Part shown: one piece after another, positions 6,427 to 10,599 of the stretch
Position numbering within the stretch: position 1 is the stretch's first letter
How the letters are laid out: every line of letters starts with the position of its first letter
Origin: Candidatus Nezhaarchaeota archaeon WYZ-LMO8
GTDB taxonomy: Archaea; Thermoproteota; Methanomethylicia; Nezhaarchaeales; WYZ-LMO8
Direction of reading: 5' to 3'
DNA length: 33,353 nt
NCBI GenBank assembly: GCA_004347965.1
Contig: QNVF01000012.1
Coordinates: forward strand, 1 to 33,353
Translations under genes and position numbers: made by a program
The notes under the pieces: generated by a model
Told to the model about the DNA's origin: nothing
Database searches by the model: none
What the model saw: only the letters and a program-made list of their open reading frames with translations

Positions 6427-7833
6427 CTAACCCTCAACCCTCTTAACTCTTATCAATTGCTCGTCTTCTCTAAGTCCATAAGCTAAAATTACAAGGTCTC
6501 CAAGCTTAATTTCATTTATTTTCTTGAGGAACTTGAATGTCTCCTCTAGACCTTCATCGTAGTTAGATGCTTTAACTAAGTATCCTTTAACCCCCCATAG
6601 GACATTTAATTGCTTCAAAACCTTGAGATTCGGTGTTCCGACATAGAGGTCAACTGATGGTCTTAGTAGTGATGCTAGCCTTGCTGTATTACCGTGAATG
6701 CTATATATAATCAACTTGGCGCCCAAATCCTCTGCAAGAGATACTACTCCCTTAGTGAAGCTTGCCCATAAGCCTTTAACAGCTCGACGTCCAATCGTAC
6801 GTACGTCTTCTTCAGCAGCCTTGATTATTCTCTTAAGCCACTTAACAGCTTCAACCGGATATTTACCGATGGCAGTTTCCCCGGTCAACATCAATGCATC
6901 AACGCCCTCAGAAACAGCTAAGCTCACGTCGACAACCTCAGCCCTCGTTGGTACAGGGTTTTCCGTCATGGACTCTAAGAGTTGAGTTGCTATTATTACA
7001 GGTCTCTCCATGTCCATTGCTTTGTCGACTATGAGTTGTTGGAAGTGTGGGATCTTCTCTAAACCAATTACCATCCCCAAGTCTCCACGAGCTACCAGAA
7101 CAGCATCAGATGCCTCAATTATTCCTTCCAAGTTGTCTATAGCGGTCTTGGTCTCTATCTTAGCTATTATCTTGACGTCCTCGTAATTCCACCTCTTCAA
7201 TAAGCTCCTCAAGGACTCTACATCCAGCGAAGTCCTTACACAGCTCAATCCAACGTAATCGACCTTATGCTCTAAAGCGAACTTTAGGTCCTCCAAGTCC
7301 TTGCTAGTTAATGATGGGATATTGAAATCCTTGCCGGGAATCGCTAGGGCCTTTCTGGACTTTATGACGACGTCTGTGAGAGCCATCAGCTCCACATGGT
7401 TTGACGTTGCGTCGATTACCTCAAGCTTAACCCTACCGTCATCCATGACTATTAAGTCTCCAACTTCTAAGGAATCATATACCTCTTTAAGTGGTAGTGG
7501 TACCTCGCGTTTCTCCGCTTCGCCTCTATCACTTAAGATAAGCTTTACCCTCTCTCCCTTCTTAACTTGAATAACTCCATTAATATCTCCCAGTCTAATC
7601 GAGGGGCCACGTAAGTCACCTATTAATGTTAATGGTCTCTTCAAGGTCTCTTCGACCTTTACGAGGGAGTCTATTAATGACGACCAGAAGAAGTGATCCC
7701 CATGAGCAAAGTTTATCCTGAAGCCCGAGGCACCTGCTTCAGCCATTCCATATATGATTTCAAAGCTGCTTGAAGAGGGTCCTAAAGAGGCTATGATCTT
7801 AGTTCTAACATCTCTAGTCATGGTGTTTATCAT
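6427..7833 (-). CDS. pyk: Pyruvate kinase
   Basis: RTKIIASLGPSS, RINFAHG, IAKIET, VARGDLG, ATQLLESM, PTRAEVVD and LTGETAIG motifs. Confidence 0.96.
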   Translation of the reverse strand: MINTMTRDVRTKIIASLGPSSSSFEIIYGMAEAGASGFRINFAHGDHFFWSSLIDSLVKVEETLKRPLTLIGDLRGPSIRLGDINGVIQVKKGERVKLILSDRGEAEKREVPLPLKEVYDSLEVGDLIVMDDGRVKLEVIDATSNHVELMALTDVVIKSRKALAIPGKDFNIPSLTSKDLEDLKFALEHKVDYVGLSCVRTSLDVESLRSLLKRWNYEDVKIIAKIETKTAIDNLEGIIEASDAVLVARGDLGMVIGLEKIPHFQQLIVDKAMDMERPVIIATQLLESMTENPVPTRAEVVDVSLAVSEGVDALMLTGETAIGKYPVEAVKWLKRIIKAAEEDVRTIGRRAVKGLWASFTKGVVSLAEDLGAKLIIYSIHGNTARLASLLRPSVDLYVGTPNLKVLKQLNVLWGVKGYLVKASNYDEGLEETFKFLKKINEIKLGDLVILAYGLREDEQLIRVKRVEG

Positions 7834-7907
7834 GAATTACTAAGATTGACTATACTATAAGTGTTCTCCAAAGCTTTCCGGACCTTCATCTTACGAAATT
7901 GATTAGA

Positions 7908-7925
7908 GAAAAGTTTATTTTAAAA
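7908..7925 (+). promoter_or_regulatory. BRE/TATA promoter for yhhQ-queC
   Basis: GAAAAG followed by TTTATTTTAAAA; predicts a TSS at about 7942-7948, just before the GC-rich leader. Confidence 0.6.
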
Positions 7926-7942
7926 CTCAAAGTGAGCTCGTA

Positions 7943-8053
7943 GCGTTACCGGCGGGCTGAGCTCCGCCGTTACTCCAGATGCGGCGAAGCCTCGATGAGG
8001 GCTAGCCAAGGGAGAAATCAACCTCTCCCACGGAGTTGTGGGAGGTTGTCTGG
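7943..8053 (+). ncRNA. Structured 5' leader, candidate riboswitch upstream of yhhQ-queC
   Basis: GC-rich stretch in AT-rich flanks. Hairpins: CGGCGG 7950-55/CCGCCG 7964-69; GGC..AGCCT 7983-92/GGGCT.GCC 7999-8007; competing GGGAGA 8010-15/TCTCCC 8024-29 versus CAACC..TCCCAC 8019-31/GTGGGAGGTTG 8038-48, which buries the TTG start. Confidence 0.55.
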
Positions 8054-8702
8054 TGAAGGTACTCGAATAATACTGGTATCAGTATTTACAGCATCTCTAA
8101 TAGTAGCCAATATAACAGCATCGAAGATCATACAGCTTTGGTGGTTAACGTTTCCAGCCGGCACTTTAGCTTACTGCATCACATTTCTTTGTACAGACCT
8201 GTACACTGAGTTCTTTGGGAAACGTGAAACTGAACTTGTTGTTCTTGCAGGCTTCGTTGCCAACATCCTCATGGTTGTCTTAGTTCAAGCAGCCATAATG
8301 GCTCCCATAGCCCCCTTCCAAGAGGGTTATCAAGAGATTTATGCAAATGTCTTGGCTCCTACGTGGCGCATCGTACTAGCCAGTATGGTAGCTTACATAA
8401 TATCACAGAGCCATGACGTCTGGGCCTTTCACTTTTGGGGTAAACTGACTAGAGGCAAGCACTTATGGATACGTAACAACGCCTCAACGATGGTTAGCCA
8501 AGCCATAGACACGCTAATCTTCACGTTCATAGCATTTTGGGGTGCCATCGATTTAGTCAACATATTGAACATGATGGCTACTCTCTATGTAATTAAGTGG
8601 GTCATAGCCGCACTTGACACCCCCTTCTGCTACCTAGGTGTACATCTAATACGCAAGATCACCAACTTAAAGCCCATATGGCTCAGAGGAGATGAGGTTT
8701 GA
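8046..8702 (+). CDS. yhhQ: Queuosine/archaeosine precursor (preQ0/preQ1) transporter, YhhQ/VUT family
   Basis: ANITASK, FLCTDLYTEFFG, RIVLASMVAYIISQSHDV, LWIRNNASTMVSQAIDT and DTPF motifs. The track start at 7995 adds 17 non-family-like residues, so TTG at 8046 is the more likely start. Confidence 0.9.
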   Translation: MSGEGTRIILVSVFTASLIVANITASKIIQLWWLTFPAGTLAYCITFLCTDLYTEFFGKRETELVVLAGFVANILMVVLVQAAIMAPIAPFQEGYQEIYANVLAPTWRIVLASMVAYIISQSHDVWAFHFWGKLTRGKHLWIRNNASTMVSQAIDTLIFTFIAFWGAIDLVNILNMMATLYVIKWVIAALDTPFCYLGVHLIRKITNLKPIWLRGDEV

Positions 8703-9439
8703 GGAAAGCAGTATCAATAGTTAGTGGAGGGCCTGATAGCATAAGCTATGCAGCTACGTGGAAAACTAGAGGTTACGTGATTTACCCGATCATATTCGAT
8801 TACGGTCAAAAGGGGCGCAAAGAGATTGAGGTAGCAAAGAATATTAGCAAGATCTTAGGGTTCGAAGAGCCTCTTGTCCTAGACATCTCATCGATCAAGA
8901 ACATATGGTTTGGAACACAGCTTTTAGATGAACGAGTGAGCGTTGAGAAGGACTATAGCCCTACCGTGGTAGTACCTATGAGGAATGTGATCTTCATAGT
9001 CATCGCTTGTGCCTATGCCTTAACCATTGGAGCTGAGGTTGTGATTTATGGAGCCCACCTTGACGACGTTGCTGCTCGAATAGATACAGGTGAACCACTC
9101 TACCCTGATTGTCATCCAAACATCGCCCTAATACTTGAGGAAGTAGTGAAAATGGCTCACTTCCCAGTGGGAGCTAAGAAGCTGGAGGTATGGAGCCCAG
9201 CAAGAGAGGGGCTTACTAAAGCTCAGAACCTAAGGAAGGGCTATGAGCTTCTAGGAGACTTGATATATGAGAGTTGGAGCTGTTACCTTAGTGACTCAGT
9301 TCACTGTGGTGCTTGTGAGTCTTGCTTCAATAGGCATAAAGCCTTCGTTGAAGCAGGAATTCAAGATAAGACTAGTTACCGAGAGCATCCTAGAGTTCAT
9401 GAAAAGTGTTTTAACAAGAGTTGTGGTGTGGATTTCTAG
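8699..9439 (+). CDS. queC: 7-cyano-7-deazaguanine (preQ0) synthase
   Basis: PP-loop SGGPDS, FDYGQK, VVPMRN, YPDC and the Zn site SCY-x6-CGACESC; overlaps the yhhQ stop. Confidence 0.93.
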   Translation: MRKAVSIVSGGPDSISYAATWKTRGYVIYPIIFDYGQKGRKEIEVAKNISKILGFEEPLVLDISSIKNIWFGTQLLDERVSVEKDYSPTVVVPMRNVIFIVIACAYALTIGAEVVIYGAHLDDVAARIDTGEPLYPDCHPNIALILEEVVKMAHFPVGAKKLEVWSPAREGLTKAQNLRKGYELLGDLIYESWSCYLSDSVHCGACESCFNRHKAFVEAGIQDKTSYREHPRVHEKCFNKSCGVDF

Positions 9440-10599
9440 CCAACTTTCCTCTTAGCTTTCCTTCTTGTCCTCTCCCTCTCTTCTACAACCTCCTCACCAG
9501 CTACGATGCCTACGCCCATAAGTCTCTTAAATGCTGAGTCTAGAAACTTTATGTAAGAACCTCTTTGACCAACAAAGGCTCCGAACTCTTCCTTCACCTT
9601 CACCATCAAATTCGGTCCAGCAAAGTCAACGTCAGTTATGTGTTTGTGAATCCACGAAACTGGATGTATAGCTCTCACGATTTCCGTGAAGTTCAACGTT
9701 AGCTCTACAGCTCTTAGCTTAAGTTGAGCATCCTGCTCAATCTTGTTTATCCTCTCACCACCTTTACCTATCAATCTAGCTAAGTAGCCCTCCTTGACTA
9801 TTACGAGGGCGTCTGGTACATGCTCGGCGGTTATATCGAAAGCCCTCTTATCGTCCATTAAATCCAGGACAGTTATGACGTCAGCGTCTGGTGCATGTAT
9901 TTTGGCGGAGTCCACAACACTTCTTTCAACGCTGCTTAAAGCCCTCTTTCTCATCTTCATTTCGAGAAGGAGTTTTATGCCTCTTTTCGCTCCGGGTCTA
10001 ACTATGTCCTTTAACCCTAAGTCCACTACTTTAGCATTGTCCTCGCCTAATAGAACTTCTCTTAACGCTACTATCCCACTGGAACCCATGCCTAAGACGC
10101 TTTGTAAGACAGGATCCCCGGCAATTATGAGTTTGCTATTACGGCCAATCCTCATGAAGGCCTCTATAGCGCTTTCTGGCATTACTGCTTGAGCATCATC
10201 GACAAATATCACGGTTTCATCGAATGTCCTACCTCTTAAGTAGTGTGTGTCAGCGAAGAGAAGCTTACCATCTCTAATCAACTCCTCTACTTCTTGCCAC
10301 TCTATCAAGCCTGTAAAAATGTCTTTGAGGTAAGCTGAAGCTAAGTCATAGTAGAGCTCTCCAGCATCGATGGTTGTAACCTCTCTTCCAGTCACGACAT
10401 CTACAACAGGTCTAGCTATCACAAACCTCTTGTACTTTCCTCCCACAACACCATCAATACCATAAGAAGCACTCAACAAGCTCTTACCAGTGCCCGTAGG
10501 ACCGAAAACTCCGACTACTTCGTAGGTATCGTCTTTAAGTGCTTGAAGTAACTCCTCCTGCCCAGGACTCATGGGCTTTATCTTTTCCAAAAGACCCAT
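9436..10599 (-). CDS. PhoH-family ATPase fused to two KH-type RNA-binding domains
   Basis: GPTGTGKS, IARP, YLRGRTF, VDDAQ and IAGDPVLQ (PhoH); C-terminal LIGKGGERI and FVGQRGSYI GxxG loops. Confidence 0.85.
   Translation of the reverse strand: MGLLEKIKPMSPGQEELLQALKDDTYEVVGVFGPTGTGKSLLSASYGIDGVVGGKYKRFVIARPVVDVVTGREVTTIDAGELYYDLASAYLKDIFTGLIEWQEVEELIRDGKLLFADTHYLRGRTFDETVIFVDDAQAVMPESAIEAFMRIGRNSKLIIAGDPVLQSVLGMGSSGIVALREVLLGEDNAKVVDLGLKDIVRPGAKRGIKLLLEMKMRKRALSSVERSVVDSAKIHAPDADVITVLDLMDDKRAFDITAEHVPDALVIVKEGYLARLIGKGGERINKIEQDAQLKLRAVELTLNFTEIVRAIHPVSWIHKHITDVDFAGPNLMVKVKEEFGAFVGQRGSYIKFLDSAFKRLMGVGIVAGEEVVEERERTRRKAKRKVG

Follow-up and report, generated by a model that had tools for sequence, protein, structure and literature searches.

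A conserved structured leader of archaeal yhhQ and queT genes as a candidate preQ0 riboswitch

What controls the yhhQ-queC operon of Candidatus Nezhaarchaeota archaeon WYZ-LMO8? The question is raised by a GC-rich leader of about 105 nt (7943-8048, + strand), which lies between a box resembling a transcription factor B recognition element and TATA element (BRE/TATA) and the in-frame TTG start (8046) of the operon, in a stretch of 33,353 nucleotides that was analyzed whole (contig QNVF01000012.1 of assembly GCA_004347965.1; hereafter the window). A first-pass annotation, made from the letters of the window, had read this leader as a candidate riboswitch for preQ0 (7-cyano-7-deazaguanine) or preQ1 that turns translation off. 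The motifs and pairings on which it relied all lie where it had placed them, and every pair is canonical. As far as computation reaches, our analysis supports the riboswitch interpretation: comparison with relatives makes it very probable that the leader is conserved, structured and cis-regulatory and is devoted to genes for 7-deazaguanine precursors, and fairly likely that it is a preQ0-sensing, translation-OFF riboswitch of a new class.

A search with the YhhQ protein against 41 related genomes recovered matches in 11, five of them close. Over these five genomes the leader has a mean column identity of 91% with long invariant runs, the identity of YhhQ being 67-100%; the leader is far better conserved than the protein downstream. 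A covariance model (R1) built from the five leaders detected one copy each in 10 of 62 genomes of the same class. Half of these 10 have no close YhhQ match, and the motif there precedes a small membrane protein that Pfam identifies as QueT. A loose GC-rich pattern applied to a collection of genome contigs returned at least 120 loci, nearly all of them chance occurrences in high-GC bacteria; 80 of these were scored with the model and two were real, one from a Candidatus Nezhaarchaeales archaeon and one from a Candidatus Hecatellales archaeon, the 40 left unscored (L103-L142) being 39 bacterial loci and one from Haloquadratum. Metagenome contigs, scanned with a specific pattern, yielded 33 loci. 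R1 matched all 44 of the loci scored next, which collapse to 34 distinct sequences. The parts of the leader, as delineated from these sequences, are as follows.

7950-7969, + strand: P1 hairpin, CGGCGG (7950-55) pairing with CCGCCG (7964-69); near-invariant, with 99% of cells paired in 34 distinct sequences
7956-7963, + strand: P1 loop of 8 nt, GCUGAGCU, read from the sequence
7970-7972, + strand: linker UUA (UYA in relatives) from P1 to helix Pa; the outer U and A never vary, with U or C between them
7973-7976, + strand: 5' strand of Pa, CUCC, partner of GGAG at 8011-8014, from covariation
7977-7981, + strand: 5-nt bulge AGAUG (RRAUG), its A, U and G invariant in alignments A3 and A4
7982, + strand: C7982, paired with G8010 and linking Pa to P2, from mutual information
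7983-8007, + strand: P2 hairpin, variable in sequence, with outer GGC/GCC and inner AGCC/GGCU, from covariation
Within 7983-8007, + strand: P2 apical loop UCGAUGAG with a conserved RAUGR, from the alignment
8008-8009, + strand: 2-nt bulge AA (GA in some relatives), its columns differing by lineage
8010-8014, + strand: GGGAG, of which G8010 pairs with C7982 and GGAG is the 3' strand of Pa, from the alignment and pairing energies
8015-8023, + strand: conserved single-stranded tail AAAUCAACC, from whole-genome copies
8024-8048, + strand: putative expression platform, the sequestering hairpin; 7 of 12 pairs changed on both sides, 87% of cells paired
8024-8031, + strand: anti-Shine-Dalgarno (anti-SD) strand UCUCCCAC, the 5' strand of the sequestering hairpin
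8032-8037, + strand: loop of the sequestering hairpin, read from the sequence
8038-8048, + strand: GUGGGAGG (8038-45) plus the UUG start (8046-48), the 3' strand of the sequestering hairpin

The aptamer would span about 75 nt (7950-8023), and within it the AGAUG bulge is a candidate site for the ligand or for a tertiary contact. In the clade of the window the sequestering hairpin is lengthened by CAACC (8019-23) pairing with GGUUG (8044-48), such that CAACC/UCCCAC (8019-8031) faces GUGGGAGGUUG (8038-8048). Six yhhQ loci have TTG and one has GTG as the start codon buried in this hairpin, at an aligned position that is identical throughout.

Folded singly, the + strand of the window copy attains a minimum free energy of -48.4 kcal/mol (z = -0.73), which 43 of 200 shuffles equal; this being no better than chance, the case rests on comparison with relatives. 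Two alignments were used for this purpose, one produced by plain MAFFT (A3, 33 sequences) and one fitted to the model (A2, 34 distinct rows). In A3, 96.6% of the cells pair, compared with 32-53% when partners are slid, 6 of the 17 pairs are changed on both sides, and none of 500 shuffles reaches the covariation score, a statistic that overstates independence because many of the 34 sequences are close kin. In the model-fitted A2, 94.0% of the cells pair and 16 of 31 pairs are changed on both sides; the slid-partner controls over both alignments span 32-55%. Among individual pairs in the 34 sequences, the Pa pair at columns 40:89 is UA in 28 and CG in 6, and that at 42:87 is CG in 27, UG in 3, AU in 1, UA in 1 and broken in 2, with a similar trend in the MAFFT alignment. 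The pair corresponding to C7982:G8010 (49:85) is CG in 26 and UA in 8, and is broken in none. Six of the eight P2 pairs are changed on both sides, with up to four pair types at a given pair. Helices 3 and 4 of the model are 99.0% and 96.5% paired, the former rising to 99.3% upon adding pair 49:85. These patterns argue that the 5' leader is a conserved structure whose helices Pa, P2 and SD/start hairpin are supported by covariation. Covariation in relatives, on which the first-pass annotation had made its proposal depend, was found: the leader is kept and its helices covary.

The same annotation had suggested that CUCC at 7962-65 or at 7973-76 might capture a GGAG in a pseudoknot. Covariation upholds the capture by 7973-76; that by 7962-65 falls away, as does the pseudoknot, the pairing being a nested helix around the second hairpin. 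Certain other elements were considered and set aside. A long-range CCAGAU:GUCUGG helix of the minimum free energy fold is absent from relatives. Likewise, a kink-turn/L7Ae site, or mimicry of a tRNA D-arm or T-loop (by eye, in GAUGA and AAAUC), was dropped, there being neither a tandem G-A arrangement nor a model match.

Could such a stretch be conserved without being a regulatory RNA at all, as an independent small RNA gene, as an N-terminal extension of YhhQ from the ATG at 7995, or as a chance GC-rich run? The minus strand does fold somewhat better than its shuffles (z = -2.36), and the ATG at 7995 of the window shares the reading frame of yhhQ. However, the G-U pairs (for example, GU 16 and AU 14 at 56:75) are compatible only with the gene's own (+) strand, the 3' hairpin holds the start codon of the gene, the element always runs in the gene's orientation, and the window genome carries a single copy, unlike a repeat or mobile element. 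Translation from ATG 7995, named by the first-pass annotation as an outcome that would refute it, is not a conserved start: the codon is in frame with an open frame in only 6 of 31 distinct sequences, and in L016, from the same genus, the frame stops after four codons. We consider these non-regulatory explanations barely credible.

The genes that follow the motif point to its function. The frame 3' of each copy with enough sequence was translated and scanned against Pfam at the curated cut-off, two loci being too short. All 39 downstream frames belong to one of two families, 15 to Vut_1/YhhQ and 24 to QueT (some loci are near-identical fragments from two collections), and every whole-genome match of the model is directly 5' of a YhhQ or QueT gene. 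YhhQ and QueT are non-homologous families of 7-deazaguanine precursor transporters. The next gene is queC in eight loci, six after yhhQ and two after queT, and in three loci queT is succeeded by the gene of an ABC-type ATPase, the third of these being assigned on its sequence. In bacteria, yhhQ and queT are tied to the salvage of queuosine precursors, and operons of yhhQ, queT and queC are described as targets of preQ1 riboswitches (PMC5372724, PMC11625349). An RNA that tracks two unrelated transporters and queC across lineages bears a classic sign of a metabolite-sensing leader, and the proposed link to yhhQ-queC has widened into one with yhhQ, queT, queC and ABC ATPase operons of several lineages. 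This regulon logic would also support the view that archaeal YhhQ and QueT are carriers of preQ0-type compounds.

The same association bears on the notion of the leader as an RNA thermometer, or as a stable 5' untranslated region (UTR) of a generic kind, in which an SD/start hairpin melts and the upstream hairpins merely stabilize the mRNA. Such a hairpin is indeed present, its predicted stability drops steeply between 37 and 85 C, and the relatives come from hot-spring metagenomes judging by run labels. Nevertheless, a thermometer would not be expected to be tied exclusively (39 of 39) to two unrelated 7-deazaguanine transporter families, and it would not need the conserved bulges, junctions and tail 5' of the hairpin; we regard it as very unlikely.

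Two loci, L015 (G013:C8, 1753-1938) and L173, have after yhhQ only an open reading frame (ORF) of 62 aa without a Pfam match, which by eye resembles the C-terminal end of QueC and may be the remnant of a truncated queC.

The motif occurs in a second architecture. When the top 30 QueT loci from the phylum sample were scored with filters off, the two known copies were accompanied by two weak matches (16.8 and 15.6 bits) directly 5' of QueT, which share with the form found in the window (type 1) P1, GUUACUCC, (A/G)UGCG...CAAG and GGAGAAAU. A pattern for this second form (type 2) was found in 4 of 401 genomes, with none for the reversed-pattern control. Type 2 retains P1, GUUACUCC, GGAGAAAU and the (A/G)UGCG...YAAG internal loop, the variable positions reading AUGCG in two of the three complete copies and GUGCG in the third. 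It differs in having a 14-nt P1 loop, ACGAGGNAGGNAUC, and an additional helix between Pa and the internal loop, and its tail is AAAU, all that is retained of AAAUCAACC, with the anti-SD strand immediately 3'. The type-2 aptamer would comprise about 115 nt. All three complete copies precede QueT, and 13 pairs are changed on both sides in their alignment.

Other variants were encountered around these copies. In the fourth type-2 copy, L214 (G482:C7, 1501-2896), the motif is broken off after its 5' half by a TnpB-like ORF of 422 aa, which bears a Cas12f1-like TNB domain, and the QueT gene lies about 1.5 kb further 3'; this looks like an insertion sequence that entered a riboswitch candidate. L179 (G196:C1, 1501-1611), a divergent copy 5' of QueT with a weak score of 30.6 bits, keeps P1, GUUAC, GAUGAU and GGGAAAUC, but its P1 loop differs and its middle part is rearranged; it may represent a third variant.

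The motif is confined to Thermoproteota-type archaea among the genomes searched, bacteria having been covered without a systematic model search. It is rare: it was found in 3 of 151 genomes of an even sample of the phylum and, in a second archaeal class, that of genome G101, in 4 of 151 genomes, two of which carry two copies each; searches around genomes G196, G101 and G213 yielded no members beyond the known copies. We lean slightly towards the broader view that this is the first riboswitch class confined to archaea, a GC-rich, thermostable preQ0 fold in two types that would govern both import (YhhQ, and QueT of the energy-coupling factor (ECF) kind) and synthesis by QueC, predicted in Nezhaarchaeales-like lineages, Bathyarchaeia and other Thermoproteota.

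Certain copies depart from the usual arrangement. Genomes G233 and G213 (loci L180/L181 and L157) have two motif copies, each before a yhhQ paralogue, and from the upstream stop to the conserved N-terminal region the frame of the second paralogue contains no ATG, GTG or TTG, which points to either an unusual start codon or a fault in the assembly. In L169 (829-1256 of a metagenome contig) yhhQ is split into a 50-aa ORF and a Vut_1-matching piece in another frame, and P1 bears a mismatch caused by G-to-A; decay of the locus or an error in sequencing could account for this.

How might such a leader act? GGGAG together with A8015 can alternatively pair with UCUCCC (8024-29), and this allows two states to be drawn. 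With ligand bound, Pa and the C7982:G8010 pair would retain GGGAG (8010-14); the UCUCCCAC strand would then be available for pairing with GUGGGAGG plus the UUG start, and initiation on yhhQ-queC would be blocked. Without ligand, GGGAGA (8010-15) would pair with UCUCCC and leave the ribosome-binding region open. By nearest-neighbour values, the OFF state (P1, Pa, P2 and the sequestering hairpin) and the ON state (P1, P2 and GGGAGA:UCUCCC) have energies of -41.7 and -32.4 kcal/mol at 37 C, -11.8 and -9.7 at 75 C, and -3.9 and -3.7 at 85 C; since they converge at high temperature, a ligand could tip the balance in a hot-spring organism. The alternative pairing itself is strong in the clade of the window (-11.4 kcal/mol). 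Where the 3' strand of Pa changes from GGAG to GGGG or UGGG, its 5' strand compensates, the alternative pairing tolerating the change through wobble only, from which we argue that Pa is the selected helix. We accordingly model the leader as an OFF switch that would work by sequestration of the SD and start at the level of translation, with Pa as the ligand-stabilized state. The mutually exclusive pairings of the first-pass annotation survive in part: they are present, strong in the window clade, and recur with different sequence in type 2, which has its own competition between Pa and the hairpin (GGAGGA-GAAA-UUCUCC), whereas the strong form of GGGAGA:UCUCCC is clade-specific.

The same cis-regulatory RNA might instead answer to another ligand (preQ1, 7-carboxy-7-deazaguanine, archaeosine base or guanine) or follow the opposite, ON logic, for instance through a pseudoknot between the P1 loop and the anti-SD strand. 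The P1 loop of type 2, GAGGGAG in L184, complements the anti-SD strand CUCCCUC, and a helix between the two would release the SD. The P1 loop of type 1, G-N-N-G-A, lies opposite the complementary U-C-A-A-C of the tail, and genomes G041 and G196 are altered on both sides. This tail, AAAUCAACC, is kept in 14 of 16 type-1 whole-genome copies (10 + 6), where it was free to vary, the exceptions being these same two genomes. The variable loop bases of types 1 and 2 do not, however, covary with the invariant tail, and the loop-tail pseudoknot was rejected as a part of the model and is kept as speculation only. Furthermore, feedback repression by the product of the pathway is described as the norm for the bacterial preQ1 classes, which control the same gene families (PMC11625349), and preQ1 is not described as an archaeal intermediate in the available part of PMC5372724, where archaea are said to use preQ0 for archaeosine.

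The ligand can be narrowed through the genes of the pathway. The genome, 93% complete, yielded no QueD/PTPS (PF01242) and no QueT (PF06177), which suggests that salvage may matter and that yhhQ-queC may serve precursor salvage and not de novo synthesis. The same absence of QueD/PTPS lends some weight to an alternative ligand, as QueC uses 7-carboxy-7-deazaguanine, and an intermediate earlier than preQ0 is conceivable. The most likely ligand is preQ0: it is the product of QueC, a substrate of YhhQ in Escherichia coli, and the free base put into archaeal tRNA, and the genome encodes a TGT of the archaeosine type. On balance, a different ligand or the ON logic appears rather unlikely.

A third way in which such a leader might be read is by a protein or a tRNA and not by a metabolite: a regulator of archaeosine metabolism, ArcTGT recognizing a substrate mimic, or a sensor that detects unmodified tRNA in the manner of a T-box. 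This TGT family enzyme is present in the genome (G000:C13:4697-5656, in a 541-codon open frame), and strong conservation of a helix and its loop, as in P1, is also typical of protein-binding sites. Against this, the operons have in common no candidate RNA-binding regulator, the partners being only transporters, queC and the ABC ATPase; distant lineages and two architectures keep the same bulges and junctions, which is usual for small-molecule aptamers; and neither a tRNA-like feature nor an Rfam match was found. We judge recognition by a protein or tRNA to be unlikely, and return to the preQ0 riboswitch as the preferred interpretation.

Several observations weigh against that interpretation, along with the chance-level single-sequence fold, the fitting of A2 to its model and the kinship of the sequences given above. 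In divergent members the equivalent of GGGAGA:UCUCCC has only 3-5 bp (-3.5 to -7.3 kcal/mol), a weakness that renders the switching logic insecure, and at moderate temperature thermodynamics favours the sequestering hairpin whether Pa is formed or not. The yhhQ loci of the window clade have GGAGG abutting the TTG/GTG start with zero spacer, which is unusual for a Shine-Dalgarno site; the GGAG/GAGG in the hairpin loop, 8-11 nt 5' of the start, may be the true ribosome-binding site. P1 scarcely varies and is backed by two compensatory variants only, both outside A2: in L176 the closing pair is A-U, and G441 has GCCGG/CCGGC in its type-2 copy. The pattern used on the metagenomes fixes GAGCUCCGCC, two positions flanking AUG, and AAAUCAACC, so that invariance at these positions is circular there, the whole-genome matches being free of this constraint. 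QueT is present in 199 of the 401 sampled genomes of the phylum, and most QueT genes of the sample are without the motif. Finally, four metatranscriptome runs gave zero reads or contigs for the leader, a result uninformative on expression or transcription start: X1 yielded a 626-nt contig over queC with 16 differences, and X2-X4 zero reads from about 3-5% of each run.

The surroundings of the leader in the window are these.

7908-7925, + strand: BRE/TATA-like promoter box gaaaagtttattttaaaa (gaaaagTTTATTTTaaaa), from the sequence, in an AT-rich spacer
Beginning at 7833, - strand: divergent pyruvate kinase gene, the 5' neighbour of the AT-rich spacer
8046-8702, + strand: yhhQ (Vut_1 family, 7-deazaguanine precursor transporter; Pfam PF02592, E = 4.5e-53)
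8699-9439, + strand: queC (7-cyano-7-deazaguanine synthase; Pfam PF06508, E = 4.1e-41)

The start of queC overlaps the end of yhhQ, and the order yhhQ then queC is also found in relatives. Most related loci have a similar A-rich/TTTAT-type box about 35-50 nt 5' of P1, and the usual archaeal spacing between TATA element and start would place transcription initiation at about 7943-7946. In genomes G004, G013 and G014 (loci L003-L005) an additional small GC hairpin, which the window copy lacks, lies between the TATA-like box and P1, and the 5' end of the leader accordingly varies in length. Convergent with queC is a gene for a fusion of a PhoH-like ATPase with a KH domain (9436-10599, - strand; PF02562 plus PF07650).

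Is the leader a known RNA? Rfam 15 had no match at gathering thresholds in the whole window. With cmscan at E <= 10, the region 7850-8120 (271 nt) gave only two chance-level matches, mir-718 (19.7 bits against a threshold of 55) and a Tetrahymena snoRNA (13.9 bits), and 15 diverse motif-bearing loci scanned at E <= 5 gave a single chance-level miRNA match. The models of preQ1-I (RF00522), preQ1-II (RF01054) and preQ1-III (RF02680) matched in none of these scans. The first of these models stands for a small H-type pseudoknot with an A-rich tail, the second for an HLout pseudoknot (P1-P4) whose P3 contains the SD, and the third for an HLout pseudoknot to which a P4 loop:SD helix, P5, is added. 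The unrelated RNAs that the first-pass annotation had held out as possible explanations, an H/ACA sRNA or an omega-RNA, are equally unmatched, and there is no TnpB-like gene near the window copy. Its suggestion that this could be a new class is borne out to the extent that a conserved, covarying leader corresponds to no Rfam family. A full-text literature search, whose scope excluded subscription-only papers and supplements, returned no description of a preQ0-sensing or archaeal preQ-type riboswitch. The 2024 review of the preQ1 family presents three bacterial classes, and its text does not contain the word "archaea" (PMC11625349).

If the preferred interpretation is correct, the leader would be a fourth solution to the problem of recognizing 7-deazaguanines and would show how the supply of archaeosine precursors is regulated. 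It would also offer a concrete RNA of about 75 nt for binding and structure studies, and, for the control of genes in thermophilic archaea, a small ligand-responsive element able to function at high temperature.

Among the known classes, preQ1-II of Bacillota offers several parallels: it occupies the 5' UTR of queT, controls translation through pairing with the SD, and has a hairpin set between its 5' stem and a purine-rich 3' strand, a layout shared along with the presumed sensing of a 7-deazaguanine (PMC11625349). The loose likeness to this class seen by the first-pass annotation did not extend to a cmscan match, even at E <= 10. The archaeal leader differs from it in its GC-rich stems and in placing the SD in a separate hairpin and not inside the aptamer, and it lacks the U-rich tract for the U-A-U triples described as the floor of the class II and III pockets (PMC11625349). 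The preQ1-III class of Ruminococcaceae is similar in being about 100 nt long, linked to queT, and built with an aptamer apart from a downstream anti-SD:SD helix (PMC11625349); the leader has nested helices and other conserved nucleotides, with no HLout pseudoknot demonstrable. With preQ1-I it would share the control of yhhQ, queT and queC-containing operons, and preQ1-I is reported to bind preQ0 as well; yet the preQ1-I aptamer, a simple H-type pseudoknot, is about half the size of that of class II (PMC11625349), whereas the archaeal forms have about 75 or 115 nt and two hairpins. Archaea are reported to use very few riboswitch classes (PMC5473149, McCown et al. 2017). The TPP, fluoride and occasional FMN, Mg2+-I and guanidine-II riboswitches that they contain are likewise cis-acting 5' leaders, and are all described as common to bacteria (PMC5473149), whereas the motif presented here concerns the supply of archaeosine precursors.

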